Source: Actinomycetes bacterium (GTDB taxonomy: Bacteria > Actinomycetota > Actinomycetes > Streptosporangiales > Streptosporangiaceae). Taken from it: 57,649 bases of DNA. The translations under genes and the position numbers were made by a program. Below, piece after piece: positions 5,162 to 54,978 of this stretch. The stretch lies in assembly GCA_021793235.1 (NCBI GenBank), contig JAJYTD010000024.1, positions 1-57,649 of the forward strand, in the 5' to 3' direction. The notes beneath the pieces were generated by a model. The model saw only the letters and a list, made by a program, of their open reading frames with translations, was not told the DNA's origin and ran no database searches. The first letter of the stretch is position 1; each line of letters begins with the position of its first letter.

Positions 5162-5304
5162 GATGTCCGGGCCGTCCGCATCGGGGTACGCCCCGTCTTC
5201 ACCTCCTGACGCCGGATCGCCGCCTTTTCGCATCCACTGCCCGGCACGGTCAACGGCATGCGGTGCGCGGTGAACTCTTTACCGCCGTGGGCGGCCGTCG
5301 CCGT

Positions 5305-5337
5305 CCGGTTGCCGACCGGTTGCCGACCGGTTGCCCA
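5305..5337. repeat. 3x tandem 11-bp repeat CCGGTTGCCGA
   Basis: Seen: ccggttgccgaccggttgccgaccggttgccc. Confidence 0.6.
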
Positions 5338-25218: not shown

Positions 25219-26079
25219 ATGCCATCGCACCAGCATGAAGTCCTCATTGAGCTGTTCCGGAACAACCTCGCCCTGGCTCCTGAACTGCTCCACGAAGCCC
25301 TGGGCATCGAGGTCCCCGATCACAACAGGGTCTTTTTGGAGAGCTGTGACCTGACCGACGTCAACCCCACCGAGTACCGAGCCGATGTCACCGTCGCTCT
25401 CAGACGGCAGAAGGAGGTGGAGATGGCGATCATCGTGGAAGTCCAACGCAGCCCGGCCAAAAAGAAGAGACTGACCTGGCCGGTCTATGTCGCCACTCTC
25501 CGCGCGAGACTGGGCTGCCCGGTCATACTGATGGTGGTGTCCCCGAAGCAGAAAGTCGCCGATTGGTGCGCTGTCCCGATCGAACTGGGACATCCGGGAT
25601 TCGTCCTGGAGCCCCTCGTCATCGGGCCGGCCCAGGTGCCGGTGGTGACCGACCCCGTCAAGGCACGCGGCCAGCCCGAACTGTCCGTGCTCTCCGCACT
25701 GGCCCACGGCGACAGCCCCGAGGTGCTCGACGCCTTCGGTCACGCCTTGGAATCAGTGGATAGCGATAAGTTCCCCTTCTATTATGACTATGTGTCGGGA
25801 CAGTTGTCCGATGCCGCCCGCGAATACTGGGAGAAGCTCATGGCCGCCGGAACTTACGAATGGCAGACCGATATCGCCCGCAAGTACGTCTCCGAGGGCA
25901 AGGCCGAGGGCAAGGCCGAGGGTGAGGCCAACGCCGTCTTGCTGTTTCTGGCCGCGCGCGGCATCCCGGTTCCGGATGAAGCCCGCGAACGCATCACCGC
26001 TTGCACCGATCTGGGCCAGCTAGAGGTGTGGATCCGGCGTGCCGCCACGGTGGACACGGCTGATGAACTCTTCGACTGA
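25219..26079 (+). CDS. Rpn-family recombination-promoting nuclease / putative transposase (PD-(D/E)XK, DUF4351 C-terminus)
   Basis: N-terminal MPSHQHEVLIELFRN... The core (EVQRS...PVYVATL) and C-terminal region (LFLAARGIPVPDEARERI...LGQLEVWIRRAATVDTADEL) resemble YhgA/Rpn-like proteins. The start was trimmed to Met 25219. Confidence 0.5.
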   Translation: MPSHQHEVLIELFRNNLALAPELLHEALGIEVPDHNRVFLESCDLTDVNPTEYRADVTVALRRQKEVEMAIIVEVQRSPAKKKRLTWPVYVATLRARLGCPVILMVVSPKQKVADWCAVPIELGHPGFVLEPLVIGPAQVPVVTDPVKARGQPELSVLSALAHGDSPEVLDAFGHALESVDSDKFPFYYDYVSGQLSDAAREYWEKLMAAGTYEWQTDIARKYVSEGKAEGKAEGEANAVLLFLAARGIPVPDEARERITACTDLGQLEVWIRRAATVDTADELFD

Positions 26080-26984: not shown

Positions 26985-27133
26985 GCCCGGGCGGGAGCAT
27001 CGGATTCGGTGGTCTGACCGGCCAGGAGGGCACGGCCGGTGGTGCGGCCCCGCAACGGCGCGGGTCCGTGGAAACCCGCCGAGAACACGTTTCCACGGAC
27101 CCGGCAAAGGCCCCGCCCTGCTCTCCGCCGTTC

Positions 27134-34187: not shown

Positions 34188-34250
34188 CAGGCAGGGATCT
34201 CTCTGTCGGATGCGATCAGGGGATCAGAGGTGGTGTGGCGCGCGCAAAGC

Positions 34251-34307
34251 ATGGGGGAGCGGATCGGTGCACCCTTAGGGATGGGGGAGCGGATCAGTTC
34301 ACCCTTC
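34251..34307. repeat. Two tandem about 27-bp direct repeats (ATGGGGGAGCGGATCrGTkCACCCTT) in the flotillin promoter region
   Basis: Seen: atgggggagcggatcggtgcacccttaggg / atgggggagcggatcagttcacccttctga, period 30 bp, 65-120 bp upstream of the flotillin start. Confidence 0.55.
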
Positions 34308-34377
34308 TGACGTTGGGTTTCGGCAACAGGTTCCGTGTTCTTTGGCCGTGAGCGGCCAGCGGCGGCCCATGGCCGGG

Positions 34378-35088
34378 TCAGGACAGGCCGGGATCCAGCG
34401 CGGCGTCGAAAGCGGTGACCCAGAAGAACTCGCCTTCAGCGTCGTAGTCGAAGATCAGCGCGGTGCTGCCGGAGGTGAGGTCCTCATCGCCGGTCTGGCG
34501 GACCTGGATGATCGCGGAGGAGCCGTCCGCGGAGGTGATCTCGGCCTGTCCGAACTCGCGATCCACGCGGCCGGTGCGCACGATGCACGTCTGGCCGACG
34601 AAATCTTTGCGGGAGGACCCGCGCTGGTTCGGCAGGAACCGCCGCAGGCCCATGACGACACCGCTGGTGAACGCCCACGCGACGATGACCGCTGCGGCCA
34701 GCACGAGCAGCCCAAGGGCGATGAGGAGCGGAGTGGAGTCCACCCCGAGGGAGTCGATCAGCACGGTTCCCACCAGGCTCGCGAACCAGGCCACCGCGAT
34801 CAGCAGTGACAGCACGACGGTGACGGGTACCCCGCCCAGGCCGATACCGGGGAAGAAGGCGCCGAAGCCGCCGGTGCCGGTGTCGACATCGGTGTCGAGT
34901 AGGTCGGTGTCGACGGCGCCCAGTATGACGAAGACCCAGTAGCCGATGACGACCAGCAGCATGAAACTGAACAGGCCGGCAGGGAAACCGAGCACCGCAC
35001 CGAAGAACTCAACCATGACCCGCCGCACCGACCCCCAACCTGAACCACTGGCCACCGCTTGCCCTGCGACCTTACCGAACCAGGTCAC
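34378..35088 (-). CDS. NfeD-like / YqiJ-like membrane protein (flotillin partner)
   Basis: Multi-TM N-terminal region, then a C-terminal soluble beta-rich (OB-like) domain (QTCIVRTGRVDREFGQAEITSADGSSAIIQVRQ). It is upstream of and co-oriented with flotillin. Confidence 0.65.
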   Translation of the reverse strand: MTWFGKVAGQAVASGSGWGSVRRVMVEFFGAVLGFPAGLFSFMLLVVIGYWVFVILGAVDTDLLDTDVDTGTGGFGAFFPGIGLGGVPVTVVLSLLIAVAWFASLVGTVLIDSLGVDSTPLLIALGLLVLAAAVIVAWAFTSGVVMGLRRFLPNQRGSSRKDFVGQTCIVRTGRVDREFGQAEITSADGSSAIIQVRQTGDEDLTSGSTALIFDYDAEGEFFWVTAFDAALDPGLS

Positions 35089-35266
35089 CGGCCAGCCCCC
35101 CAGGGGGTGAAATGTCCGGTATCGGTCACTCGGTCACCATGAATGCGCCGATCGGACACCACTTTTCGTGTCCATTGGTTGACCGTATGGCGCGCTTTCG
35201 TGTAACGATCGGATCACACGGGAATGAACAGTTTCCTCGAAGCTGCGTATTCAGAGGAGCCGCCTT

Positions 35267-35536
35267 GTGAGCCGCCCGTGGGACGTCGACCCCTCTGCAC
35301 AGTTCCGCCGCCGACTTGGCAGAACAGCTGCTGAGCTTGGCGACAGCAGGGATCGTAAAGACTGTCCGGACATCTGGGAACTGACCAACGGAGATGTCGC
35401 GATCATCGGCCGGGATGTGACAGACCTCTTCTCCGCCCGACTGCCGTCAGGTGTGGGAGTCGGCGCCGATGAACGCCTTATCGTGATCCCCGGAAATATG
35501 CTCAAGGCGGCAAAACCGGACATCGAAGATGTTTGA
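35267..35536 (+). CDS. Hypothetical 89-aa protein (first gene of a coupled three-gene module)
   Basis: Good GC3 bias. Its stop overlaps the next start (ATGTTTGA). Weak resemblance to DUF397-like small proteins (C-x-D-I...G-D-V-A-I-I-G-R-D). Confidence 0.45.
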   Translation: MSRPWDVDPSAQFRRRLGRTAAELGDSRDRKDCPDIWELTNGDVAIIGRDVTDLFSARLPSGVGVGADERLIVIPGNMLKAAKPDIEDV

Positions 35537-36140
35537 TCTGGTCTGGGAGTACCCGGCGACACCGCTGAACCGCCCGGACTACCACGCCGATTCCGATCGT
35601 GTAGAAGAACGCATGTCCGGGGTCATCTGGAAGCTGGAGCGCGCACAGTACGTGTCCGAGCAGGGCGATGAGGCATGGGACGCGTTCGTCGACGGGGACT
35701 GGCCGCTGGTCATGGCGATCTACGAGAGCGAACGCGATGCCATCCGGAAGGCCGTGGAGGAGGAGGCGAAACAGGGGGTGGAGTTCCGCCGACTGCGCAT
35801 AGTGGAGCTTCCCCCGAGCTCCTACATCCGCTGGGAGCTTCCCAGCCTGCGGATATCCGCCGAATGCGGGCGTCTGATCAGAGTGCTGGATGCACGCCGG
35901 ATTGCGGATTTGGAGCGGAAGTATCCCCTACCGGAAATGCTGGTCTGCGGTGATCACGCCCTTTACCACGTCCAGTACGACGAGCAGAAGGTGCCGATCG
36001 GTGCGCGGAAGATCGACGACCGGCAAATTGTGGGCTCGGCAGCCGCGTCTGTGGCGGCGTTGTACGCTCAGGCAGAGCCGTTGACGGACTTCGTTGAACG
36101 GGAGATCACCCCACTGGGGCCACCAAAGTACGCGGAATGA
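35529..36140 (+). CDS. Hypothetical 203-aa protein (second gene of the module)
   Basis: Overlaps both neighbours by 8 nt and 4 nt. No recognisable catalytic motif by eye. Confidence 0.5.
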   Translation: MFDLVWEYPATPLNRPDYHADSDRVEERMSGVIWKLERAQYVSEQGDEAWDAFVDGDWPLVMAIYESERDAIRKAVEEEAKQGVEFRRLRIVELPPSSYIRWELPSLRISAECGRLIRVLDARRIADLERKYPLPEMLVCGDHALYHVQYDEQKVPIGARKIDDRQIVGSAAASVAALYAQAEPLTDFVEREITPLGPPKYAE

Positions 36141-36907
36141 CACAGATAAGACGAAACGCACGCCAGGAAAGCGACCACGCCGCTGTCCGGCTGCGTTCTG
36201 CTGCTGTTTTTACTCTCATCGCGCTCCTCGCCGCGGCGGCTGTGGCCGTATCCCCTGTAGCGCTACGCGTGTTCGACGGAGCAGGCGGCGAGTGGGAGCG
36301 GCTGAGCTTCATCGGGCAGACCTACGGTGCCGTGTCCGCTCTCATCGCCGTGTTCGCGCTGGTCGGTGTGATCGGCACCCTCGTCTTCCAGGCCCGTGAC
36401 AGTCGGCGGGCGATCGAGGAAACCCGGCGCCAGGCAATGAGCGACCTGCTCAAAATGGCCATGGACGACCCCGACCTTGACGAGTGCTGGGGTCCGATTC
36501 CCCAGCCGGCCGACCCCAAGGCGCGCAAGCAGCAGCTTTACACCAACATGATCATCGCCCAGTGGAGCGCGGCTTTCGAGGCCGAGGCCATTCCGGAAGG
36601 GCGGCTGCGCCTGATCGCGCGGGAGATGTTCGAGGGCCGGCCGGGGCGCACCTACTGGCAGCGGGCAGGCCAAGGGTGGGTGTCCGGGCCGGGCAGCGCC
36701 ATGGAACTGCGTTTCGCGCGAATCCTCGACGAGGAGTACCACCGGGCCGTAGCCGTCTCGCCGGAGCCACCGCAAGAGCGGTCACCCGAGGAGAAGCGCG
36801 GACCGCGCGGACGCCGCTTCGGCACCGCCCTCCTCGCCGCGGCCACCTTCGCCGCCGGGGCTGCCACGGCCGCGGCTGTCGCCTCGGGCCGGCGTCGCCC
36901 GAGCTGA
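36137..36907 (+). CDS. Hypothetical membrane protein, 256 aa (third gene of the module)
   Basis: Two N-terminal TM helices (AVFTLIALLAAAAVAV; TYGAVSALIAVFALVGVIGTLVF), then a soluble domain and an Ala-rich tail. Its start overlaps the upstream stop (ATGA). Confidence 0.45.
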   Translation: MTQIRRNARQESDHAAVRLRSAAVFTLIALLAAAAVAVSPVALRVFDGAGGEWERLSFIGQTYGAVSALIAVFALVGVIGTLVFQARDSRRAIEETRRQAMSDLLKMAMDDPDLDECWGPIPQPADPKARKQQLYTNMIIAQWSAAFEAEAIPEGRLRLIAREMFEGRPGRTYWQRAGQGWVSGPGSAMELRFARILDEEYHRAVAVSPEPPQERSPEEKRGPRGRRFGTALLAAATFAAGAATAAAVASGRRRPS

Positions 36908-37539
36908 CCTCGCCCGCGTCTGGCCCCGTGCCCGCTGGGATCAGTTGCCCAATGGGCGCCGGTGGCCGTCCGGACCGCTCGGCTCCGCCTCGGGCGCGGG
37001 TGTGCCGTCGGGGGGAAACCGTGCTTGCGCAGCATCGTGCGGCGGTAGTGGCCGGCGGTGGCCAGCGAAAGCACGGACAGGGCCGCGGCCCAGACGCCCA
37101 CAATGATTCCCGTGGGTGCGGTGATCCAGACGGTACTCCAGGAGCTCCACTCCACCGGGTCGATGAGGAAGGAGACCAGGCCGCCACCGGGGTTGGTGAC
37201 GTAGGAGAGCGGGATGAGGACCAGGGAGGAGACGCCCACCACCGCGACGAGCCGCCGGAGGGCGTACCAGCGCCCCAGCACATCGTCGCGCACCCACATC
37301 CGATAGCGGGGCGGCACCCGGGTGTCGAGTGACCGGTAGGCCAGCCAGCGCAGGAAGGGCGGGCGTTCCCGCAGGCGGGTGAGTAGCCCGGCCTTGACGA
37401 GCCCCCACCGCTCATCGGCGGTCGTGTCCGACTCGCGCAGCTCCAGGGTGGTGGCGATGATCTCTTCGCCGGGCTGTTCCCGGTAGTGCCGGGGGTAGCA
37501 GCGCAGTGCGCGCCGTAGCCGCTGCTCGTATCTGTCCAT
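36652..37539 (-). CDS. PadR-associated membrane protein (DUF1700-like)
   Basis: MDRYEQRLRRALRCYPRHYREQPGEEII...TTADERW, then TM helices. Its start overlaps the PadR stop. The 3' end is uncertain: the frame runs open to 36652, which would overlap the convergent gene by about 255 bp. Confidence 0.45.
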   Translation of the reverse strand: MDRYEQRLRRALRCYPRHYREQPGEEIIATTLELRESDTTADERWGLVKAGLLTRLRERPPFLRWLAYRSLDTRVPPRYRMWVRDDVLGRWYALRRLVAVVGVSSLVLIPLSYVTNPGGGLVSFLIDPVEWSSWSTVWITAPTGIIVGVWAAALSVLSLATAGHYRRTMLRKHGFPPTAHPRPRRSRAVRTATGAHWATDPSGHGARRGRGQLGRRRPEATAAAVAAPAAKVAAARRAVPKRRPRGPRFSSGDRSCGGSGETATARWYSSSRIRAKRSSMALPGPDTHPWPARCQ

Positions 37540-37541
37540 GC

Positions 37542-37877
37542 TCACACGGCCCCCATTCTCGGCTGCGGGCGCGGCGCCAGCAGGGATCGGGCGACCGATG
37601 CCAGGCGTTCCAGCCGCGCGGTCTCCTCGGCCAGCACCGTGTGCCCGTCCTCGGTCAGTTGGTAATAGCGGCGGTTGCGGCCGTTGACGACCTCTTCCTT
37701 GGCGACCGAGACCAGGCCGTCGCCGGTGAGCCGGTCGAGCGCGCCGTAGAGGGTTCCGGCGCCGAGGCGCACCCGCCCGTCGGAGAGCTCCCGCACCGCC
37801 GTGATGATCGCGTATCCGTGCCGTGGTCCTTCGGTGAGGGCCAGCAGCATGAGGTAGCTCTGCTCCCGTAGTGCCAT
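37542..37877 (-). CDS. PadR-family transcriptional regulator
   Basis: LMLLALTEGPRHGYAIITAV...GTLYGALDRLTGDGLV...RRYYQLTEDG: canonical PadR winged helix. Confidence 0.85.
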   Translation of the reverse strand: MALREQSYLMLLALTEGPRHGYAIITAVRELSDGRVRLGAGTLYGALDRLTGDGLVSVAKEEVVNGRNRRYYQLTEDGHTVLAEETARLERLASVARSLLAPRPQPRMGAV

Positions 37878-38042
37878 ACTCGATATATATCAGTAAGAGA
37901 TATATAAAGGAATAGGTGGCCGGATACGGCCACGTGGAGGGCAACAGTGGTGGGCAGCGGATTCGCGGCCACCGAACGCTGCGGCGCAGAAACAGCGCAC
38001 TCGTGGGAAACCGGCCGCCGCCGTCCGTGCGTCCACGGGTCC

Positions 38043-38708
38043 ATGGAGAACAACACCGCGCCCGGGTGGGGCGCCATCGACGCCGCACTGCTACGGATCT
38101 ACCCGCAAACCGAGCCGCTGCATATGGGCACCGAGCATCCGTGGCGCCTGGGCGGTCCCCACCCCCTCGACGGCATCAGCTTCTACCCGCGAACCGACCC
38201 GGTGCCGCATTGGCACGTGGTCGGCTACGGCATGACCGAGCTGTACGACAAGGAGACGGACAACTCCGAGGAATCCGGCTGGGGGTTCGAGTTCACCTTC
38301 CGGGCGGTGCGCCGCGGTGGTGACGAAGAGCCTCCGATGTGGGCCGCGGTTCTGCTGCAGAAGCTGGGCCGCTACGTGTTCGACTCCGGTAACCGGTTCG
38401 AACCGGGGCACACCATGAAGGTCGGCGGTCCGATCGACGGCTCTGACAACGGCTCCGTGATCCGCGCGCTCGCCTTCGCCGAAGACCCCGAACTCGGCCA
38501 GATCGCCACCCCGCACGGCCGGGTCCGGTTCCTGCAGGTGATCGGGCTCAGCCTGGACGAGTACGAGGCCGCACTCGGGGGACGGGCCCATGTCCTGCTC
38601 CGGGTCCTGGGGTCCAGGATCCCGCTGGGCACCACGGACATGCGCCGGCGCTCACTGCTGGAGGACCCGAAGATCGCCGCGAGTCTGGCCCAGGCCATGC
38701 AGCATTAG
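38043..38708 (+). CDS. Suppressor-of-fused (SUFU)-like domain protein
   Basis: WHVVGYGMTELYDKETDNSEESGWGFEFTFR matches the bacterial SUFU-like signature by recollection. The start was trimmed to Met 38043. Confidence 0.6.
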   Translation: MENNTAPGWGAIDAALLRIYPQTEPLHMGTEHPWRLGGPHPLDGISFYPRTDPVPHWHVVGYGMTELYDKETDNSEESGWGFEFTFRAVRRGGDEEPPMWAAVLLQKLGRYVFDSGNRFEPGHTMKVGGPIDGSDNGSVIRALAFAEDPELGQIATPHGRVRFLQVIGLSLDEYEAALGGRAHVLLRVLGSRIPLGTTDMRRRSLLEDPKIAASLAQAMQH

Positions 38709-38733
38709 CCGCCCGGCTACCCGGACACCTTGG

Positions 38734-39165
38734 TCACCCCTCCTGATCGAGGATTCCGTCGATCATGTCGTCGAGGACCAGGCTGAGATCCTTGTCGACC
38801 AGCAGCCGCAGCTCGTGGAGCGCGTCGCTGGTATCGACCCTGTCTCCCGCGCGGCCCTTGATCACGCACAGCCGTGCTGTCTCCCGTGTCGGGATATTGA
38901 GAAACCCCAGTTCGTTCGGTGGCGCCAACTCGTACAGGTTCACCGGATAGCGGGTGTGGCGGGTGCGCCACAGCTCGTGGCGGGCCAGAACGAACCCGTG
39001 CAGCAGGGAATCGAAGATCCCGCCCGGCTCAAGGTCGGCCTGGGCATCCTGATCGGCCAGGTGGCGGCATTCGTCGCAGTTGGCTAGCTCTGCCTTGAGG
39101 AGGCGGCGCGCGGCGGGGTGGGTGACGTGTTCGGCGTTGAGCTTGCTGGGGTGACGGTGCGCCAT
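38734..39165 (-). CDS. Hypothetical protein (CxxC-containing, about 144 aa)
   Basis: The C-terminal 144 aa of the track ORF have plausible composition (ELANCDECRH...). The N-terminal extension was rejected. Confidence 0.35.
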   Translation of the reverse strand: MAHRHPSKLNAEHVTHPAARRLLKAELANCDECRHLADQDAQADLEPGGIFDSLLHGFVLARHELWRTRHTRYPVNLYELAPPNELGFLNIPTRETARLCVIKGRAGDRVDTSDALHELRLLVDKDLSLVLDDMIDGILDQEG

Positions 39166-39526
39166 GCGGATCAGGCTACGCGAGCGCTTTGACCGTGCCG
39201 TAAGCGTTCCTGACCGCGCGCTCGCTGACGCTTCTATGTCGAGCAGGGGGTGGAGGTTGCGGCAATGGGGCGGAGCCGGCTTGCCGCTGAGCAGACGGGT
39301 ACCCTCCCCCGGAGCCGTGGTGGCGGTCTGGTTTTCGAGGTGGCCGGTGTGTGCGGCGGCAAGCCGGCGCTCCTCGCTGCGCTCGGACGTGCCCCATTGC
39401 CGCGACCGGGAAGGCCGGCTCTCCACCGCTCCGATGCCGGCTGCTGTGGCCACACTGGACGCCGCTGTGTGGGTAGGGCTTGGGGACAGCGGCGTGAACA
39501 TGGGCTAGACGAGGGGATAGACGACC

Positions 39527-40573
39527 ATGCGTGCTCTGACAGTGGTGCCGCAGCAGGCCGGCTCGGTGCGGGTGAGAGAAGTCGAAGCGCCTGTCGCAGG
39601 AGAGGGCGAGCTGCTCGTCGACGGCGTGGCGCTGGGGATCTGCGGCACCGACCAGGAGATCGCCAGAGGCGAGTACGGTTCGGCGCCGCCTGGCGAGGAA
39701 CACCTGATCCTGGGGCACGAATCGCTCGGCCGGGTGCGCCAGGCGCCGCAGGGCAGCGGCTTTACACCGGGCGATCTGGTGGTCGGTGTCGTGCGGCGGC
39801 CCGACCCCGAACCGTGCGGGGCGTGCGCGCGCGGCGAGTTCGACATGTGCCGCAACGGCCGGTTCACCGAACGCGGCATCAAGGAGATCCACGGCTACGG
39901 CTCGCAGCAGTGGACGGTGGCAGCCGACTACGCGGTCAAGCTCGACCCCGCGCTGGAACGTGTCGGCGTGCTCCTGGAGACCGCCTCGGTCGTCGCCAAG
40001 GCGTGGGAGCAGATCGAGCGGATCGGCGGCCGGGCCTGGTTCGAACCGCGCCGCCTGCTCGTCACCGGCGCCGGCCCGATCGGGCTGCTGGCCGCCCTGC
40101 TCGGTGTCCAGCGCGGCCTTGACGTGCATGTCCTCGACCGGGTGGAGACGGGGACCAAACCGCAGCTGGTAGCCGACCTCGGGGCGACCTACCACACCGG
40201 AAGCATCGCCGATATCGCCGCCAAGGGCGAGCCGGACGTGGTCATCGAGGCCACCGGCGCCTCCAGCCTCATCCTCGACGCGTTGGCCCACAACGCGCAC
40301 TACGGGATCGTCTGCCTCACCGGTCTCTCATCGAGCGGCCGCAAACTCAGCATCGACGCGGGTGAGCTCAACCGCGAGATCGTCCTGGAGAACGACGCGC
40401 TCTTCGGGTCGGTCAACGCCAACCTGCGCCACTACGAACTGGCCGCCCATGCGCTGGCCCGGGCCGACCGCTCCTGGCTGGAGCGGATGATCACCCGGCG
40501 GCTGCCGCTGGACCGCGCGCACGAGGCGTTCGAACCCGGCGGCGAAGACGTGAAGACCGTCATCGACCTGTGA
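39527..40573 (+). CDS. Zn-dependent medium-chain dehydrogenase/reductase (glucose/threonine dehydrogenase-like)
   Basis: GHESLG zinc-ligand motif, structural-zinc Cys cluster (CGACARGEFDMC), Rossmann motif GAGPIGLL. Confidence 0.85.
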   Translation: MRALTVVPQQAGSVRVREVEAPVAGEGELLVDGVALGICGTDQEIARGEYGSAPPGEEHLILGHESLGRVRQAPQGSGFTPGDLVVGVVRRPDPEPCGACARGEFDMCRNGRFTERGIKEIHGYGSQQWTVAADYAVKLDPALERVGVLLETASVVAKAWEQIERIGGRAWFEPRRLLVTGAGPIGLLAALLGVQRGLDVHVLDRVETGTKPQLVADLGATYHTGSIADIAAKGEPDVVIEATGASSLILDALAHNAHYGIVCLTGLSSSGRKLSIDAGELNREIVLENDALFGSVNANLRHYELAAHALARADRSWLERMITRRLPLDRAHEAFEPGGEDVKTVIDL

Positions 40574-40767
40574 GCCGCCGGGGTGCCCCCGGCACTGGTG
40601 CTTCTTGGCTTTGTGGGGAAGCCGGGCGGGGGTATGGCAGGGACCTGTCTCTCCTCGTGCCGATCTCGGGAGAACTTCCCTCTCCGGCGCTGTTGAGGGG
40701 GAATTCGCCCCGAGATCGGCGCACACCCCCGCTCCCGCCCCGGGCCTCCTGGCGATTGGTCAGAGCG

Positions 40768-40860
40768 GGTCACCCCCACGTGCGTGGGGCGCGGATGTGT
40801 CCCTCCCGGTCCTGCTGGGCGAAGCCCGACTTACCCCCACCTGCGTGGGGCTCGGATAGA
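40768..40860. repeat. Pair of about 29-bp direct repeats with an internal hairpin, 61-bp periodicity (CRISPR-repeat-like; no cas genes)
   Basis: Seen: ggTCACCCCCACGTGCGTGGGGCGCGGATg at about 40768 and ctTACCCCCACCTGCGTGGGGCTCGGATa at about 40829. 26 of 28 core positions are identical. The stem CCCCAC/GTGGGG resembles type I-E repeat architecture. Confidence 0.35.
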
Positions 40861-40981
40861 CGCTCGCAACCGACCCGTGTGCCGGTTCTCTTATGCCGAG
40901 CCGTTCTGTCACCGGTGCGGTGGCCGTGTTCCTCCGCCACCGATCGCGCCGAAGCCGACAGTGGACGGGAGAGTATCTTGA

Positions 40982-41003
40982 TTATCGAACACCAGTTCGA
41001 TAA
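40982..41003. promoter_or_regulatory. Perfect 9-4-9 palindrome TTATCGAAC-acca-GTTCGATAA upstream of the AraC-type regulator
   Basis: Seen about 140 bp upstream of the 41140 start. AT-rich relative to its context. Confidence 0.4.
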
Positions 41004-41139
41004 AAGTGTATTGGCAAGCTTGGGCTCCCCGAGGAATCCGCTCGTGATGGTGTTGCGGCGCTTGTAGGTGTCGGTGACGTAGCTGGCGGTGCGGTCGGCC
41101 GTGTCCGACTGATCTCAGTCATGGCGAGGAAGCAGGAGG

Positions 41140-41844
41140 ATGCTGGAAACCGAGGACCGGCCGTCGGGATCGCCGTATATCGCCCGCGTGTGGCGCAGCC
41201 GCAGCTCCTGCGTCGAGCACATGACGTCAGTGGCGACATCGAATTGGGAGCTTGTCGTGTGGACGCAGCGTGGCCTCGTCCACGCCGCGGTCCGTGGCCC
41301 GGAGACCGCAGCGAGCGCGGCCGACGTGCCCGACGAGTCGGAGTCATTCGGGATCAGCTTTTCGCATGGCACGTCGATGCCGCACCTGCCGATGGCGCGG
41401 CTCGTCGACAGGCAATTGGAATGCCCCCACGTGACCGGGAGAGCCTTCGTGCTCCGGGGCGAGGAATGGTCCCTTCCTGATTTCGAGAACGCCGAGGAGT
41501 TCGTGGCCCGGCTCGCCCGTGAGGGGGTGCTCGTGCGCGATCCGCTCGTGGAAGAGGCCGTCAAGGGCGGGACACCGAGGGTCGGTGCGCGCTCGGTGCA
41601 GCGGCGCGTCGCCGCGGCGACCGGTCTCACTCAAGGCGCGATCCGGCAGATAGAGCGTGCCCGGCAGGCCGCGATCCTGCTCGGCGAGGGGATCGCGCCC
41701 CTCGACGTTACGCACCGGCTCGACTACTACGACCAGCCGCACCTGGCCAGGTCGCTCACGCGCTTCGTCGGCCGCACGGCGACGCAATTGCGGCGAGAAG
41801 ACGCCGCCGAACCCCTGTCGCTTCTGTACAAGACCGGCACCTGA
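41140..41844 (+). CDS. AraC-family transcriptional regulator (C-terminal HTH_18)
   Basis: C-terminal HTH (RSVQRRVAAATGLTQGAIRQIERARQA...PHLARSLTRFVGRTATQLRR). Confidence 0.7.
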   Translation: MLETEDRPSGSPYIARVWRSRSSCVEHMTSVATSNWELVVWTQRGLVHAAVRGPETAASAADVPDESESFGISFSHGTSMPHLPMARLVDRQLECPHVTGRAFVLRGEEWSLPDFENAEEFVARLAREGVLVRDPLVEEAVKGGTPRVGARSVQRRVAAATGLTQGAIRQIERARQAAILLGEGIAPLDVTHRLDYYDQPHLARSLTRFVGRTATQLRREDAAEPLSLLYKTGT

Positions 41845-41967
41845 CCACGTTCATAGCCTGGCGCGTGGCGCGGCACGGGCCCGTGCAGCCGGTTCGTCGA
41901 CGATCAACCCGGCGAACCAATAGCCGACCTGGAGAACAACAACATTCAGCAGGAGAACAAGAGCACC

Positions 41968-42504
41968 ATGGGCAAGATCATCTCGAACTTCTTCATCTCG
42001 CTCGACGGGGTGGTCGAGTCACCGGATGAGTGGCACTTCCCGTACTTCAACGATGAGATGGGCGCCGTGGTGGGCGCCGGCATCGACACGAGCAAGGCGC
42101 TACTCATGGGCCGCCGACTCTATGACGAGTGGGCCGAGTACTGGCCCGGCAGCACGGAAGAGCCGGTTGCGACCCACTTCAACAACGCGTCGAAGTACGT
42201 GATCTCCGGCTCGCTGACGGATCCGGCGTGGCACAACACGACGGTGCTGCCCGGCGACGTCGACGCGGTTCGCCGGTTCAAGGAGGACATCGACGGCGAC
42301 ATCAGCATGTCGGGCAGCGCGGTCACCGTGCGTTGGCTCCTCGCCAACGGACTGCTCGACGAACTCCGTCTTCTCGTGCACCCGATCGTTGTCGGCCATG
42401 GTCAGCGTTTGTTCGAGAACACCCCCACGCACAAGCTTGCCCTCACCGATAGCACCACCCTCTCGACCGGCGTACTCAGCCTCACTTACGTGCCGGCCTC
42501 ATGA
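41968..42504 (+). CDS. Dihydrofolate reductase-family protein (RibD C-terminal domain-like)
   Basis: MGKIISNFFISLDGVVESPDEWHF...LLDELRLLVHPIVVGHGQRLF: typical YwjB/RibD_C family. Confidence 0.8.
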   Translation: MGKIISNFFISLDGVVESPDEWHFPYFNDEMGAVVGAGIDTSKALLMGRRLYDEWAEYWPGSTEEPVATHFNNASKYVISGSLTDPAWHNTTVLPGDVDAVRRFKEDIDGDISMSGSAVTVRWLLANGLLDELRLLVHPIVVGHGQRLFENTPTHKLALTDSTTLSTGVLSLTYVPAS

Positions 42505-42546
42505 CCTCCCCTCACGGCCGCCGCCAAACCATTGAGTAACCGTGCC

Positions 42547-42602
42547 GATCTTGACGCTGTGCACGTAGGAAACCGCTTCCCGGAGTGCACAGCGTCAAGA
42601 TC
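42547..42602. repeat. Extended hairpin element, copy 1: GATCTTGACGCTGTGCAC-N20-GTGCACAGCGTCAAGATC
   Basis: Seen. The 18-bp arms are identical to those of copy 2 at 47667-47722. The loop is 20 nt but of different sequence. Confidence 0.7.
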
Positions 42603-42639
42603 AACGACAAGAACCGCCCACGGGCCGGGCGGCACTCCT

Positions 42640-43020
42640 TCACCGGGGTGTCCGGGCTACCCGGGTCCCCCAGATTCCCCGCGTTCCCCGGTCCTTCCCA
42701 CTCCCACCTTGGCCTGCTCCCGGGCCGGCGCCCATGGTGTGCCCAGCCGGGGCGGCGCCGGAGACCGTGTCGCTGAAGGAGAAGAGGAGGTGCAGCGCGG
42801 CCTGCCCCCGCAGCATCCAGCCGCAGATGGTGGGCAGTCCCCGCTCATGGCCTGCGGCGCTCCACGCGACCGCGAAGATCAGCAGGAATCCGGTGGCCAG
42901 GGCGAGCAGTGAGGTGCCGTGCCCTGCCGTCATCGTGTGTCCGGCGGCGGATACGCCGACGCACACCGCGGCGAACACAGCGGCGCGCGGTGAGCGGGAC
43001 GACGCCGGCGGAGCGGACAC
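42640..43020 (-). CDS. Small hypothetical membrane protein with repeated AGHTM motifs
   Basis: Two TM helices. His/Met-containing repeats (AGHTMTAGHG ... AGHTMGAGPGAG). Strong GC3 bias. Confidence 0.35.
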   Translation of the reverse strand: MSAPPASSRSPRAAVFAAVCVGVSAAGHTMTAGHGTSLLALATGFLLIFAVAWSAAGHERGLPTICGWMLRGQAALHLLFSFSDTVSGAAPAGHTMGAGPGAGQGGSGKDRGTRGIWGTRVARTPR

Positions 43021-43179
43021 GCGGCCATCTTCGCATCGAACTACGGAATCCGATATCCGTTGTACGGCGGTTAATTTTGGCGGATTGCAAATTCCCAGGT
43101 CGCCGATCTCGAAAAAATCGCGGGCGCCAGGAATTTCAGGGAAGGTTCATCTGGTATCGGGGGGAATGCGCAGTAGAGC

Positions 43180-44556
43180 TCATTGGTCTGCCGGTGGACT
43201 CCCATTCGCGGACTGCGGGTGTGAACGTGCGGACACCACCAGGGCGGCCGCCACAGCGGCGAGCGTCAGAGCGGCGAACACCAGTGCCGTCCCCGCGTAG
43301 CCGGCCAGGCCGAGGCCGACGCCGCCGAGCGCGGCGCCCGCGAACACCCCCAGGCTCATTCCGGCCGCGTTGATGCTCAGCGCCGAACCGCGCAGGTCCC
43401 CGCAGCACCGGACGAGAAGGCTGACGACACAGGCTGCGACGGTCGCGTGCCCCGCACCGAGCAGGGCCGTCAGGCTCAGCGCGAGCGGTAGCGACCCGGT
43501 GAAGTAGAAGCCGCTGATGCAGGCGAGGACCGCGAGCAGGCTGAGGAGCAGCAGCCGCTCGGTTCTCAGCCGAGGGCGGGCGATGTTGGCGAGCCGCCCG
43601 GCGAGCAGGTTGCCGACGAAGAAGGAGGCCCCGCTCAGCGTCCAGACCAGGGCGAAGACTCCGGGGGTGAGCTGGAAGCGATCGGCGTAGAACGCGGCGA
43701 GGTAGGACAGGTATCCCATGAACGCCCCCGTCCGCAGGCACCCGATGAGGATCAGCGGCATCGCGCCGGGGATACGGGCTAGTGCCAGGAACGAGGCGAT
43801 GTAGCCGGGCCCCGTGCCGGCTCCCTGGCCTGACTGCTCGCCCTCGCTCTTTCGTAGGACGAACACCACTCCCAGGGCCGCGGCGGTGACAGCGACCGCC
43901 ACCAGGTCGCCGCGCCAGCCCCACAGCACCGCGGGAAGCGCGACCAGGGGAGCCGCCAGCATCGCGGTCATCGACTGGGTGGCGGTGACCAGGGTGGCGG
44001 CCCGCCCTGAGGCCGCGTCGTCGCCATAGCGGTCCGCGGCCGACGCGGTAAGGGCGGGATTCAGTATCGCCGTCGCAGCCCCGACGAGCAGGCAGAACGC
44101 GGCGAGGGCGAAGAATTCGCCGACCGCGCCCACGGCCGCCGATACCCCGAGCAGCCCAAGGGCAGCGGCGGCTGCGCGCGTCTTCGGGACACGATCGATC
44201 AAGGGGGCCAGGCTGACGCCGACGACCAGGGCGGCAAGGCCGCCAAGCCCGCGGAGTCCGCCCATCGCGGCCACGCTGCTGCCCGCCGTCTCCGAAATCG
44301 GCACCAGAAAGGTGCTGAAGACGGTGAACGGCAGCAACCCGACTGCCGAGGCGAGCAGGATCGGCCCCAGGGCGGCGGCCATCCGCAGGTCGCCGGGGAC
44401 CGGTCCGTCGGTCGGAGCAAGACCCGTACCGGCCGCCTTCTCGCCGGGGGTAGGGGTTTCGGCGTTCGGCCGGGCGGATTCGGTGCTCACGACGGCCCCA
44501 CTCTCCTTTCCGTTAGTGGTGGCGCGCTGCCGGGGCCGCGGAAACCGGGTGGTCAC
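43180..44556 (-). CDS. MFS transporter (last gene of the ABC uptake operon)
   Basis: 12-TM hydrophobicity. Its GTG start overlaps the stop of the upstream substrate-binding gene (GTGA). Confidence 0.75.
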   Translation of the reverse strand: MTTRFPRPRQRATTNGKESGAVVSTESARPNAETPTPGEKAAGTGLAPTDGPVPGDLRMAAALGPILLASAVGLLPFTVFSTFLVPISETAGSSVAAMGGLRGLGGLAALVVGVSLAPLIDRVPKTRAAAAALGLLGVSAAVGAVGEFFALAAFCLLVGAATAILNPALTASAADRYGDDAASGRAATLVTATQSMTAMLAAPLVALPAVLWGWRGDLVAVAVTAAALGVVFVLRKSEGEQSGQGAGTGPGYIASFLALARIPGAMPLILIGCLRTGAFMGYLSYLAAFYADRFQLTPGVFALVWTLSGASFFVGNLLAGRLANIARPRLRTERLLLLSLLAVLACISGFYFTGSLPLALSLTALLGAGHATVAACVVSLLVRCCGDLRGSALSINAAGMSLGVFAGAALGGVGLGLAGYAGTALVFAALTLAAVAAALVVSARSHPQSANGSPPADQ

Positions 44557-45572
44557 CGGCCGATCGAGCGCAGGTACTCGGCGAGCTTCTCCGCGGCGTC
44601 GACGTTGCGCGGACCGCTGACGGCCTCGCCGTAGTCGATGATGTGGAAGCGCTCCTCTTCGACGGCCGGCACCGATTTCAGCCCGGGAAAGGACTTCAGG
44701 AACGCGATCTTCTCCTCTACGGGCTGGTCGCCGTAGTCCACGACCGCGATGACCTCCGGTTCGGCTCTGATGACGCTTTCCCAGCCGACCGTGGTCCAGC
44801 GTTGGTCGAGGTCGGCGAAGATGTTCTCGCCGCCCGCGGCTTCGATGATCTCGTTCGGTGCGGCCTGCCCGCCGGAGGTGAAGGGCTGGTCGGTTCCGGA
44901 GTCGTAGAGGAACACGTTCGCGGGGTCGCCCTTGGGGTGGGTCTCCTCCAGCACGGCGATGCGCTCTTGCAGGTCGGCGACCAGTTCGTCGGCGCGGTCC
45001 TCGACGTGGAAGATCGCGCCGATGTCACGGAGGTCGGTGTAGAGCGCTTCCAGCGGAGGGATCGTGACCGGGGTGTCGCCGTAGTCGAAGCAGCTTTCGG
45101 TGAACATGTAGCTCTGGATGCCGACCTCCTCCAGCAGTTCGGGAGTGATACCGCGTTCTTCGCTGAACCCCGAGTTCCAGCCGGCGAGGACCCAGTCCGC
45201 CTTCGCGTCGACTACGATCTCCCGGCTGATCACGTCGGTGCCGAGGACTTCCACCGCGTCGTAGCTCTCCTTGTAGGGGGAGCGGGAGACCGGTTCGTCG
45301 GCGGTGGAGGGCATGACGTAGCCAGCCATCTGATCGGCCAGCCCCAAGGCGAACATCTTCTCGGTGGCGCTCATGTCATAGGCCACCGGCCGCTGCGGCA
45401 TCGGGTACTCGACCTCTTCGCCGCAGTTGGCGATGGTGACGGTGTGTTCGGTGGTGGAACCGCCTTCGACTTCGGCGCCGCACGCGGTGGTCAGTACGCA
45501 CAGTGACGCGAGCGGCAGCACGGCTCGGCGTACGGAGAGCAGGCGGTTCCTCGGCGTTCTCGGCAGGGTCAT
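44553..45572 (-). CDS. ABC transporter substrate-binding lipoprotein (siderophore/cobalamin TroA-like family)
   Basis: Signal peptide + lipobox (VLTTACG). Periplasmic binding-protein fold typical of FecB/FhuD-like proteins. The start was trimmed to Met 45572, which overlaps the ATPase stop. Confidence 0.85.
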   Translation of the reverse strand: MTLPRTPRNRLLSVRRAVLPLASLCVLTTACGAEVEGGSTTEHTVTIANCGEEVEYPMPQRPVAYDMSATEKMFALGLADQMAGYVMPSTADEPVSRSPYKESYDAVEVLGTDVISREIVVDAKADWVLAGWNSGFSEERGITPELLEEVGIQSYMFTESCFDYGDTPVTIPPLEALYTDLRDIGAIFHVEDRADELVADLQERIAVLEETHPKGDPANVFLYDSGTDQPFTSGGQAAPNEIIEAAGGENIFADLDQRWTTVGWESVIRAEPEVIAVVDYGDQPVEEKIAFLKSFPGLKSVPAVEEERFHIIDYGEAVSGPRNVDAAEKLAEYLRSIGR

Positions 45573-46363
45573 GGGCGGGTTCCTTCCCGGGGGGCCTCGG
45601 TGTCGAGGTCGTGGAGCAGGCGGGGTTCGCCGGTGGCGGGATGGGTGACGACGGTGACCGCCACCCCGAAGACCTTCCGGATGTATTCGGGGGTGAGCAC
45701 CTCGGCGGGCGGGCCGATGGCGACGAGGGCGCCGTCCTGGAGTAGGGCGAGCCGGTCGCAGGCGGCCGCGGCAAGGTTGAGGTCGTGCAGTGCCACCAGG
45801 ACGGTGAGGCCAGAGCCGCGCAGGAACGACAGGAGGTCGATCTGGTGGCGTATGTCCAGGTGGTTCGTTGGCTCGTCGAGCACGAACACCCGGGGCTCCT
45901 GTACCAGCGCGCGGGCGATGAACACGCGCTGCCGTTCTCCGCCCGACAGCGTCAGCACACTTTGTTCGGCCAGGTGCGCGGTAGTGGTGCGGAGCATCGC
46001 CTGGTGGCACAGTTCTGTTTCCCGGGGGCTGAGGGCCTGGTTGCCCCGGGTGTGCGGGGATCGGCCCAAGGCCACGATCTCCCGCACAGTGAAGTCGAGT
46101 TCGGCCGTACTCTCCTGCGTGAGAGCGGCCACCCAACGGGCGCTATCACGCAGGGACAGTGAGATGAGGTCGGTGCCGTCCAGCAGCACCGCACCGGCGG
46201 TGGGGCGCAGGGCACGGTAGACGCAGCGCAGGACAGTGGACTTGCCGCTGCCGTTGGGGCCGAGCAGTCCCACGACCTCGCCGCTGCCGATGTCCAGGTT
46301 CAGGTCATGGACCAGGAACCGGCCGTCGGCCTCCACCGATATCCCGTCGAGTGCCAGTCGCAT
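45569..46363 (-). CDS. ABC transporter ATP-binding protein (FecE-like)
   Basis: Walker A GPNGSGKST, signature LSGGERQRV, Walker B VFVLDEPT. Confidence 0.9.
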   Translation of the reverse strand: MRLALDGISVEADGRFLVHDLNLDIGSGEVVGLLGPNGSGKSTVLRCVYRALRPTAGAVLLDGTDLISLSLRDSARWVAALTQESTAELDFTVREIVALGRSPHTRGNQALSPRETELCHQAMLRTTTAHLAEQSVLTLSGGERQRVFIARALVQEPRVFVLDEPTNHLDIRHQIDLLSFLRGSGLTVLVALHDLNLAAAACDRLALLQDGALVAIGPPAEVLTPEYIRKVFGVAVTVVTHPATGEPRLLHDLDTEAPREGTRP

Positions 46364-47488
46364 TCACCGGCCCCCGAACAGGTAGCTCCGGCGCCGCATG
46401 AGGGTGATGAAGACCGGTACCCCGATCAGTGCGGTGATGACGCCGAGAGGAAGCTCCTGCGGTGCGACCAGAGTGCGGGAGACCAGGTCCACCCAGACGA
46501 GGAAGAGGGCGCCGGCCAGAGGGGCGACGGCCAGGACCCGGGCATGGCCGGAGCCGACCACCATCCGGACGAGGTGGGGCATCACCAGTCCGACGAAGCC
46601 GATGGCGCCGCTGACGGCCACCACCGCTCCCGTGACCAAGGCGGTGAGCAGGAAGAGCCGGCGCCGCAGCGCCTCCGTGTGCACGCCCAGACTGGCGGCG
46701 GTCTCGTCGCCCAGTGCCAGCACGTCCAGCGACCGGCTGCTGCGCCGCAGCAGCACGAGTGCGGCCAGCACCGCGGACCCGGCGAGGGGAAGCGAGCCCC
46801 AGGTGGCCGCGCCCAGGCTGCCCATCAGCCAGAACAGGACGGTCCGGGCTGCTTCGCCGTCTTTGGACAGGAAGACGATCACGCTCATCACGGCCTGGAA
46901 GCCGAACGCCATGGCGACCCCGGTCAGGACCAGCCGCAGTGGGCTGAGGCCGCCACGGCTCTGCGCGGCGAGGTAGACCAGGATCGAGGCGCCCAGCGCG
47001 CCCAGGAAGGCCGCCGCCGACAGGGCGTAGACGCCGAGCGCCCCGAACGCCCCGAAGACGACCACCGACGTGGCGCCGACCGAAGCACCGGAGGAGACCC
47101 CCAGCACGAACGGGTCGGCCAGGGCGTTGCGGACCAGCGCCTGCACCGCCACCCCGATGATGCCAAGCCCGGCGCCCACCACCGCGGCCAGCAGAACGCG
47201 CGGGGTTCGGACCGCCCAGATGATGGTGTAGTCGGAGACCTCATCGGGGCGGATGGTGCCGTTTGTCAGGGCGGCGCCGATGTAGCGCAGCGTGTCCCCG
47301 GCGGGCATGGTCGCCGGGCCCAGGGAGATGGCGGCGACAACGGACACCGCCAGGGCGGTGGAGAGGACGGCCACGGTGAGCGCCAGTCCGCTCCGGGCTG
47401 TGCGGGCCATCCGGTGTTCCTCGCGGTTCGCCGCGGCGGGGCCGGTCGGTTGGAGGGGGTCGGTGGTGGGTTCAGTGGTCGCGGGCAT
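46364..47488 (-). CDS. ABC transporter permease (FecCD family)
   Basis: FecCD-type hydrophobic profile and motifs (LTGVAMAFGFQAV...LIGVPVFITLM). The start is possibly Met at about 47410. Confidence 0.9.
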   Translation of the reverse strand: MPATTEPTTDPLQPTGPAAANREEHRMARTARSGLALTVAVLSTALAVSVVAAISLGPATMPAGDTLRYIGAALTNGTIRPDEVSDYTIIWAVRTPRVLLAAVVGAGLGIIGVAVQALVRNALADPFVLGVSSGASVGATSVVVFGAFGALGVYALSAAAFLGALGASILVYLAAQSRGGLSPLRLVLTGVAMAFGFQAVMSVIVFLSKDGEAARTVLFWLMGSLGAATWGSLPLAGSAVLAALVLLRRSSRSLDVLALGDETAASLGVHTEALRRRLFLLTALVTGAVVAVSGAIGFVGLVMPHLVRMVVGSGHARVLAVAPLAGALFLVWVDLVSRTLVAPQELPLGVITALIGVPVFITLMRRRSYLFGGR

Positions 47489-47573
47489 GCCGGACCCCGG
47501 GTGTCGTCATCGTCAGACCTCCGCATGGTGCCTCGGTGCCCCTGTGCCGGGGCCTCTGCGAGCTTCACAGAAA

Positions 47574-47588
47574 TGAAAATCATTTTCA
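47574..47588. promoter_or_regulatory. Zur-box-like 7-1-7 palindrome TGAAAAT-C-ATTTTCA upstream of the ABC permease
   Basis: Seen 86 bp upstream of the permease start. It matches the actinobacterial Zur operator consensus (TGAAAATGATTTTCA-type) as I recall it. Confidence 0.5.
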
Positions 47589-47666
47589 ATGTGGAGAAAG
47601 GAGATGTGACGCGGGTCTCGAAGGCCAGGGCGACCTTTCCATGTGCTTCTCCGAGGGACCCGCACT

Positions 47667-47722
47667 GATCTTGACGCTGTGCACCTTAAAACACGCGTTC
47701 GTACGTGCACAGCGTCAAGATC
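47667..47722. repeat. Extended hairpin element, copy 2: GATCTTGACGCTGTGCAC-N20-GTGCACAGCGTCAAGATC
   Basis: Seen. It lies immediately next to the clpB terminator. Confidence 0.7.
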
Positions 47723-47723
47723 G

Positions 47724-47767
47724 GCGAAAAGAACGGCCCCCGGTGCGCGTTGGCGCTCCGGGGGCCG
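47724..47767 (-). terminator. Rho-independent terminator of clpB
   Basis: 10-bp stem CGGCCCCCGG/CCGGGGGCCG, followed on the minus strand by TTCTTTTCG, about 17 nt after the clpB stop. Confidence 0.6.
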
Positions 47768-47783
47768 TGGTGTACGGGTCGGA

Positions 47784-50396
<2,613 letters not shown>

Positions 50397-54957: not shown

Positions 54958-54978
54958 CTTGAGTCGACTCGGCTCAAT
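54958..54978. promoter_or_regulatory. HAIR-like HspR operator candidate CTTGAGT-N7-GCTCAAT upstream of dnaK (additional CTTACG/CGTAAG repeats nearby)
   Basis: Seen 70-90 bp upstream of the dnaK start. The HAIR consensus is CTTGAGT-N7-ACTCAAG. Confidence 0.4.

Follow-up and report, generated by a model that had tools for sequence, protein, structure and literature searches.

REPINs, described in Pseudomonas and Enterobacteria, are extragenic elements in which two invariant end-sequences, in inverted orientation, flank a less conserved spacer whose critical features are its length and its capacity to form a hairpin (PMC3116915). Here, we describe an element of related architecture in an uncultured actinomycete of the Streptosporangiaceae, in a stretch of 57,649 nucleotides (GenBank assembly GCA_021793235.1, contig JAJYTD010000024.1; hereafter, the window). 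The element, a palindromic doublet of 56 bp, is formed by two 18-bp arms in inverted orientation separated by a 20-nt loop, and is found in two copies, 5.1 kb apart, one on each side of a metallophore-type uptake operon. Among all the data searched, it is a lineage-specific, two-copy orphan palindromic element. We tentatively favor the view that it is a REPIN/MITE-like (MITE, miniature inverted-repeat transposable element) extragenic doublet, lodged in the tails of terminators and spread via recognition of its arms; it is not to be classed as a REPIN or as a MITE, and behaves like one at best.

The likeness to REPINs extends to the invariant short inverted sequences (16-mers in REPINs, 18-mers here), the hairpin-forming spacer, the extragenic location, often at the 3′ ends of genes, and the lack of a target-site duplication (PMC3116915). 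The units of which REPINs are made (repetitive extragenic palindromes, REPs) are imperfect palindromes, whereas the arms found here are not palindromic; moreover, tens to hundreds of copies and a single-copy RAYT gene are typical there, whereas two copies and no RAYT gene are found in the ~81 kb of this organism that were examined (the window, 8.9 kb of extensions and 14.6 kb around tig, the trigger-factor gene), and the host is an actinomycete, a group unmentioned in the two RAYT/HUH surveys examined. The Correia/NEMIS elements of Neisseria are MITEs whose terminal inverted repeats, when co-transcribed, form long RNA hairpins that can be cut by RNase III and can alter the 3′ ends of mRNAs. 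Like them, the doublet is a short, non-coding, intergenic element with perfect terminal inverted repeats (18 bp); Correia/NEMIS elements, however, are 100-155 bp long, duplicate a TA target, share their interior and number in the hundreds, whereas the doublet has 56 bp, no target-site duplication, unrelated interiors and two copies. No insertion sequence (IS) or other sequence with these ends was found in the genomes, metagenomes, viral contigs, plasmids and phages scanned. Systems in which a Y1/HUH enzyme recognizes a hairpin yield a conserved flank on one side only, without target duplication; the hairpins of TnpA are short and imperfect and come with guide and cleavage tetranucleotides, unlike the stem of the doublet, and no TnpA gene was found here. 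The likeness to the IS200/IS605 derivatives called PATEs, which rely on Y1/HUH 'peel-and-paste' (cf. PMC6006769), lies in a DNA hairpin that would be recognized in place of duplex ends, in the lack of a target duplication, and in the conserved sequence on one side only, as for a target abutting one end, which at the doublet is inferred from two sites.

Identical arms and unrelated loops

Arm A, GATCTTGACGCTGTGCAC, is present as an exact plus-strand copy at the low-coordinate end of each doublet, and its reverse complement, arm A′, at the other end (Table 1). A search of the window that allowed up to three mismatches recovered four arms, all exact, against 0.10 expected from 100 shuffles, none of which (0/100) reached four; the four arms are identical at 72 of 72 positions. 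The loops, GTAGGAAACCGCTTCCCGGA and CTTAAAACACGCGTTCGTAC, are both 20 nt long and show no significant similarity in permutation tests, whether compared directly (p=0.13) or in inverted orientation (p=0.06); a reading of them as diverged homologues was set aside on this ground. An earlier note on this DNA, made from the letters alone, had described arms identical between copies and unrelated loops of equal length, and both observations are confirmed; its argument that conserved arms with free loops speak for sequence-specific recognition or a structured RNA is sound, and the three classes of candidate it named (a site for a dimeric protein, a REP/MITE-like element, and a small RNA or processing signal) are all still in play.

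As single-stranded DNA, the bare 56-mers fold with energies of -21.5 to -23.5 kcal/mol (z ~ -8), and in RNA folding the 18-bp stem forms from either strand of both copies; the two copies are the only hairpins with this stem and loop size in the window. The only palindromes internal to the arm are GATC and GTGCAC, so that a stem-loop within one arm is impossible. Extension of the outer arms of the two copies gives an inverted repeat of 28 nt that includes one mismatch, and a repeat search returned an 84-nt direct family, 76% identical between the copies, that includes the doublet and its terminator side (see below).

The doublet is a genuine element and not an assembly or amplification artefact, as its sequence is identical in several independent assemblies from two studies (ERZ794971/72/77, SRR6713627, SRR26497569/89 and GCA_027322605.1), of which GCA_027322605.1 is 100% identical to the window over 14.6 kb. 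Copy 1 is present, and identical, in the Logan assemblies of SRR26497569/89. The contigs of both these samples end at position 42528, 19 nt beyond copy 1, and the partner contig ends at 42468, within the RibD_C gene; the breaks at 42468-42528 suggest a small strain-level variant or a low-coverage gap over 59 nt. A strain-variable junction at copy 1 itself was considered and set aside, the contig ends being read as a local assembly break and not as a structural variant.

Both copies lie just past terminators

On the minus strand, the window carries a dnaK-grpE-dnaJ-hspR-clpB heat-shock cluster, the clpB terminator with its T-rich tail, copy 2, a Zur-box-like palindrome and the FecCD/ABC/PBP/MFS uptake operon, and then a 97-aa gene of unknown family, its terminator and tail, and copy 1. 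Both copies are extragenic, between called genes and at gene 3′ ends: copy 1 is found between the convergent 97-aa gene (minus strand) and RibD_C gene (plus strand), and copy 2 has the clpB terminator on one side and the Zur-box promoter of the FecCD operon on the other. Read on the minus strand, each copy begins exactly 10 nt past the base of the stem of an intrinsic terminator, that of the 97-aa gene, which was called by a terminator scan, or that of clpB, which was recognized from the repeat search and the fold. The earlier note had placed the copies just past minus-strand terminators, after clpB and a small membrane-protein gene, in agreement with this offset. It had also described short flanking similarity, which is real but one-sided, corresponding to the terminator tail and the distal part of the stem: over 24 nt, the high-coordinate flanks are identical at 17 positions (71%; p ~1.4e-4 against random 24-mers of the window), with 8 of 10 matches in the tails, whereas the low-coordinate flanks agree at 8 of 24 positions, which is not significant. 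The stems of the two terminators are of different length and sequence. The minus-strand motif GTTCTTnTCG occurs three times in the window, twice at the doublet sites. Since the flank homology is on the terminator side, the two copies are in direct orientation. With two sites, both of them terminator tails, a target preference suggested by the 17/24 identity and the equal 10-nt offset is inseparable from convergence.

The 18-bp stem was itself considered as an intrinsic terminator, and rejected: it was not called by the terminator scan and no T-run follows it on either strand, the next bases on the plus strand being AACGACAAGAAC or GGCGAAAAGAAC, and those on the minus strand GGCACGG or AGTGCGG.

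Table 1. Position of the doublet copies, their flanks and the neighboring features in the window
Feature	Position	Strand	Details
Copy 1 of the doublet	42547..42602	no strand	arm A 42547-42564, loop 42565-42584, arm A′ 42585-42602
Copy 2 of the doublet	47667..47722	no strand	arm A 47667-47684, loop 47685-47704, arm A′ 47705-47722
Flank of copy 1	42603..42626	-	10-nt T-rich tail TCTTGTCGTT and 3′ half of the terminator stem
Flank of copy 2	47723..47746	-	10-nt T-rich tail TCTTTTCGCC and 3′ half of the clpB terminator stem
Intrinsic terminator of the 97-aa gene	42613..42633	-	8-bp stem, 5-nt loop
Intrinsic terminator of clpB	47733..47768	-	16-bp interrupted stem, 4-nt loop
Zur-box-like perfect palindrome TGAAAATCATTTTCA	47574..47588	no strand	78 nt from copy 2, upstream of FecCD; context, outside the doublet
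FecCD-ABC-PBP-MFS metallophore-type uptake operon	43180..47488	-	bracketed by the two copies; context
clpB	47784..50396	-	last gene of the dnaK-grpE-dnaJ-hspR-clpB heat-shock cluster; context

Searches for further copies

Exact-arm scans returned 32 matches in 185,579 GTDB representative genomes and 61 in JGI metagenomes, all of them single arms, none with a second arm within 90 nt (a few 'partners' with four to six mismatches are self-overlaps via the GTGCAC palindrome), and no match in the viral contigs of IMG/VR. In a mismatch-tolerant BLAST search of plasmids and phages, the 84-nt unit gave chance partial matches only. With single-arm matches only in GTDB and JGI, a widespread repeat family was dismissed. 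A known RNA family was likewise rejected, as Rfam 15 gave no matches at gathering thresholds and, in E-value mode, only generic hairpin noise (miRNA models, 14-25 bits against thresholds of 39-95). A literature search for the arm sequence found coincidental primer matches only. Loops acting as spacers or guides were discarded because no identical or complementary target was found for them in the window within five mismatches, or in the viral contigs; integron attC sites and Tn3-type repeats were dropped on general criteria, without a formal test (no core sites, no GGGG ends, no integrase or transposase).

In the ~81 kb of the organism, the two copies are the only ones, and no further arm was found within three mismatches except in tig. 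The GTDB and JGI scans did not return the 18-mer of the organism's own tig (see below), the best tig context being 0.90 identical; the organism is therefore absent from the collections scanned, and the scans cannot give the copy number within its genome. Uniqueness to these two sites, which the earlier note had named, together with a lack of evidence for transcripts or protein binding, as a finding that would refute its reading, holds across the collections scanned and the ~81 kb.

Identity of the arms with the trigger-factor gene

Ten of the 32 GTDB matches and 19 of the 61 JGI matches to the arm fall in the trigger-factor gene, where the 18-mer GTGCACAGCGTCAAGATC is read in frame as V-H-S-V-K-I, within the motif TVHSVKIKELPELDD. 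The organism's own tig (P0132, in ERZ794972/77) carries the exact 18-mer, arm A′ being the same as positions 3930-3947 of its contig, L103; this contig, with a coverage of ~7x, is found in the same samples and at similar coverage as the window contig. Individual arms match tig for no more than 1-2 nt beyond the 18-mer (19, 20, 19 and 19 nt), and the rest of the doublet bears no resemblance to the tig locus. Markov models (order 0-5), trained on the ~81 kb with the doublet and tig sites removed, predict 1.2e-4 to 1.0e-3 occurrences of the 18-mer in 7 Mb, counting both strands. The empirical decay of k-mers shared by the window and the tig locus is ~3.1-fold per base, and a second exact 18-mer, a GC-rich codon string around GGCGGCGAGTACGAGG, is common to positions 57112-57129 of the window and 3886-3903 of L103, within tig; this points to a chance expectation at the upper end of that range or somewhat above it. 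This second 18-mer, 44 nt upstream of the arm match in tig, is taken as high-GC coding background, its closeness being odd.

Among the 120 closest Tig proteins, VHSVKV is found in 78 and VHSVKI in eight, and the probability of the exact codon string, given the peptide VHSVKI, is ~0.05; for these reasons the arm matches the lineage's own tig allele and not a generic motif. Relatives with the same 18-mer in tig do not have the hairpin. The identity between arm and tig, found post hoc, is probably not due to chance.

Comparison with Nocardiopsis sp. CNT-189

The nearest syntenic genome, that of Nocardiopsis sp. CNT-189, has the same dnaK-grpE-dnaJ-hspR-clpB-FecCD-ABC-PBP-MFS order. Its clpB-FecCD spacer contains a terminator and a Zur box (TGAAAACGGTTTTCA, the counterpart of TGAAAATCATTTTCA in the window), without the long-stem hairpin, and the distance from terminator to Zur box is 58 nt, against 144 nt in the window. 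Protein identities between the two genomes are 92% for DnaK, 91% for ClpB, 83% for DnaJ, 79% for FecCD, 71% for the ABC protein, 74% for the PBP, 69% for the MFS protein and 74% for the Band7 protein, encoded outside the segment; the GC content at third codon positions (GC3) is 0.85-0.94 throughout and uniform across the supposed boundaries. On gene order and divergence, the uptake operon is read as ancestral at this position and vertically inherited, and the hairpin as the addition in the window genome. Homologues of the operon in three other actinomycete loci (L039, L101 and L102) are not syntenic with clpB and are uninformative.

The window genome and CNT-189 lose synteny between the MFS gene and the Band7/DUF3686 pair (about 34200-43180 in the window against 14348-18865 of L038), a variable stretch within which copy 1 is found. 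In the window, this region carries the 97-aa gene, RibD_C, an AraC-like gene, ADH, SUFU-like, PadR, DUF6082 and DUF6879 genes; in CNT-189, it carries an HTH_31 (PopR/ClgR-like) gene and two clpP genes.

Origin and possible role of the doublet

As a REPIN/MITE-like element, the doublet would have two invariant 18-bp inverted ends and a 20-nt spacer of fixed length and free sequence, the arms being the part recognized by a copying machinery, most plausibly a Y1/HUH-type transposase (RAYT or IS200/IS605) that acts in trans and reads the hairpin or its ends. If only copies with intact arms propagate, the arms would stay identical while the spacer drifts, and the one-sided flank, 5′-GTTCTTnTCG on the minus strand, would represent a target preference for terminator tails. 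The doublet most likely has no dedicated cellular function; the extra, stable 18-bp stem-loop in read-through RNA from clpB or the 97-aa gene may nevertheless act as a termination back-up and, at clpB, insulate the Zur-regulated promoter from the heat-shock operon. Mobility, the enzyme, the target preference, the effect at the RNA level and a seeding of the arms from tig are what we infer. In favor of this reading are the four identical 18-mers around unrelated 20-nt spacers, with a stable hairpin on either strand; the extragenic location of both copies at the same 10-nt offset from two terminators of differing stem sequence; the absence of the hairpin from CNT-189, where the shorter spacer is consistent with an insertion in the window genome; and the lack of a match to a known RNA family, of a promoter consensus and of a T-run after the stem. 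If a duplication had simply diverged, one would hardly expect 72 identical arm positions next to unrelated spacers and a flank at 71% identity.

Several observations weigh against it. Only two copies are known, close together in the ~81 kb of the organism, and no paired copy was found in the 185,579 GTDB genomes, the JGI metagenomes, IMG/VR, plasmids or phages; no transposase, RAYT or recombinase gene is present in the ~81 kb, and no empty-site allele was seen in any sample examined. No target-site duplication is evident in the sequences bordering the doublets (GTGCC...AACGA and GCACT...GGCGA), although the terminal GATC palindrome could alternatively be read as a 4-bp duplication, the two being indistinguishable here. 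The arms are not themselves small palindromes, unlike true REPs, the interiors are unrelated, whereas copies made by transposition normally share theirs, and Actinobacteria receive no mention in the RAYT/HUH survey literature examined. Finally, the exact identity with tig is not predicted by a REPIN/MITE-like model, which needs seeding of the arms or coincidence to account for it.

The monomers of AraC/XylS-type regulators cover ~17-18 bp, and RhaS/RhaR-type operators have inverted half-sites with 16-17-bp spacers. The doublet could, in a rather unlikely alternative, be such a bipartite operator in duplex DNA, with inverted 18-bp half-sites, 38 bp centre-to-centre, occupied by a dimeric or tetrameric regulator or roadblock protein that, placed past two terminators, would block read-through or loop the 5-kb segment. 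Conserved half-sites and spacer length with a free spacer sequence are the classical signature of a bipartite operator, and the geometry, inverted ~17-18 bp half-sites with a fixed spacer of ~16-20 bp and arbitrary sequence, is that of RhaS/RhaR operators; a gene with a weak AraC-type helix-turn-helix (41140-41844; HTH_18, 27 bits against a cutoff of 33.6) is found at a distance of 700 nt from copy 1, and HspR, PadR and other regulators are encoded on the contig. RhaS/RhaR operators, however, abut the -35 region and are imperfect, whereas copy 1 is located where two convergent genes end, a place at which a promoter would not be expected, and the four half-sites are identical, a 72/72 identity that exceeds the usual conservation of operators. 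In addition, no further half-site was found within three mismatches in the promoter regions of the ~81 kb, the site is absent from CNT-189, which has the same operon, and the arms are neither a HAIR (HspR) nor a Zur site. An origin without mobility also appears unlikely: a terminator-plus-hairpin module of ~80 nt would have been duplicated once in the 5-kb neighborhood by ectopic repair or template switching, its arms kept perfect by intrastrand (quasi-palindrome) correction and conversion between copies, with no function beyond that of an extra stem-loop. The direct-orientation similarity that continues beyond the palindrome on the terminator side (the 84-nt family and the 17/24 flank) and the restriction to two known copies, close together, are what such a duplication would leave; yet the spacers are at random level next to a 71% flank and 100% arms, whereas conversion should homogenize the spacer, and the stems of the two terminators are unlike in both length and sequence.

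The identity with tig raises a further alternative, which we consider very improbable: a hairpin RNA with arms copied from the organism's trigger-factor gene, the stem of which would be transcribed by read-through from clpB or the 97-aa gene, or from the plus strand, and cut by an RNase III-like double-stranded RNA nuclease, to give an 18-nt antisense to the tig mRNA that couples the chaperone or metal-stress operons to trigger-factor expression. The pair would then be comparable to paralogous hairpin genes, in which the stems are identical and the loops free to vary. Young plant MIRNA genes reportedly arise by inverted duplication of a fragment of their target gene. They too have hairpin arms identical to a stretch of a coding gene, and paralogous hairpins that keep their stems and lose similarity in the loops; they are, however, eukaryotic and depend on Dicer and Argonaute, and they resemble their target past the mature segment, too, while the match of the arms to tig ends after 18-20 nt. 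To our knowledge, no bacterial equivalent of such an origin and no mechanism of this type in bacteria has been established. The low chance expectation for the exact match of arm A′, its specificity for the lineage's allele and the position of copy 2 directly behind the dnaK-clpB chaperone cluster are in line with a tig-derived RNA. Set against them are the consensus scan, in which no promoter was found for the hairpin, and its position after terminators on the minus strand, the sequestration of the antisense strand in a perfect 18-bp stem, the lack of a hairpin in relatives with the same tig 18-mer, the lack of a chaperone link for copy 1, the post hoc nature of the finding, and the unrelated GC-rich 18-mer also common to the window and the tig locus. 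The broader proposal of gene-derived regulatory RNAs, in which a tig fragment duplicated in inverted form at two loci and processed to antisense would constitute a bacterial analogue of miRNAs or siRNAs and link dnaK-clpB to the ribosome-associated chaperone, seems to us more doubtful still. Most improbable is the suggestion of the earlier note that the pair marks the ends of a mobilized or co-regulated unit carrying the Zur-box ABC/MFS operon. The gene map agrees with that note in that the copies bracket the operon, and the outer arms do extend to the 28-nt inverted repeat; but a mobile operon or composite transposon is essentially excluded by the clpB-FecCD-ABC-PBP-MFS order kept in CNT-189 without the hairpin, by smooth divergence and by uniform GC3, neither of which shows a step at the boundaries. 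No transposase or integrase is encoded in the window, the flank homology shows the copies to be direct and not inverted, and copy 2 is upstream of the Zur-box promoter, outside the operon transcript, so that the two copies are not on one operon transcript.

Should many copies be present genome-wide, the doublet would represent a REPIN-like replicator family in an actinomycete, a host group that the REP/RAYT surveys examined do not mention, and if such a family is real its founding sequence would be traceable to a housekeeping gene, a rare view of the birth of a repeat. Should there be only two copies and tig, the allele-specific identity would need templated copying or antisense regulation, which is more unusual. 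Either way, the reading of the Zur-regulated uptake operon is unchanged: it is ordinary and vertically inherited.

Other features of the window

The consensus scan found no promoter sites in the hairpin (0 sites), and inspection led us to reject the doublet as a promoter: the arm has a TTGACG but no -10 at 16-19 nt in any of the four readings. A replication terminus or fork trap was also rejected, there being no switch in GC skew. The HAIR consensus is CTTGAGT-N7-ACTCAAG, located upstream of heat-shock genes. The doublet was discarded as an HspR/HAIR site because its CTTGACG and CGTCAAG are 36 nt apart and downstream of clpB, the wrong spacing and position. HspR itself is well supported (profile score of 145 bits against a cutoff of 105), and a canonical HspR-type repeat, ATTGAGC-CGAGTCG-ACTCAAG, is found at 54958-54978 on the minus strand, in the dnaK promoter region, followed by a TTGACA-like sequence, with a possible further half-site, CCTCAAGATCT, ~40 nt upstream.

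We take TGAAAATCATTTTCA to be a Zur box from its likeness to actinobacterial Zur operators. Between it and copy 2, on the plus strand (47593-47668), a strong Shine-Dalgarno-like run, GGAGAAAGGAG, is immediately followed by a start-stop ATG-TGA, which is overlapped by a 20-codon open reading frame with a GTG start; the TGA stop of this frame shares bases with arm A of copy 2, of which it covers the first two. These may represent a Zur-controlled divergent leader or mini-ORF, or chance. The FecCD/ABC/PBP homologues in other actinomycetes (L039, L101 and L102) are found within clusters that contain PALP, ATP-grasp, methyltransferase or DUF364/GHMP genes. These clusters are read as those of an opine-type metallophore and, if so, the operon of the window would import such a metallophore.

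Elsewhere in the window, an inverted repeat unrelated to the doublet, with perfect 15-bp arms and a 13-nt loop (CGGGTCCGTGGAAAC...GTTTCCACGGACCCG; 27061-27103), between the convergent CbiZ and DUF3686 genes, is probably a terminator. Tandem duplications are found at 5305-5335, with an 11-nt period (CCGGTTGCCGA), and at 25892-25921, with a 12-nt period (CCGAGGGCAAGG). Finally, a gene on the minus strand (4055-5233) that adjoins purL codes for a bacterial eRF1-like protein (baeRF_family2, E=1e-34) and is 100% identical in samples from two studies.

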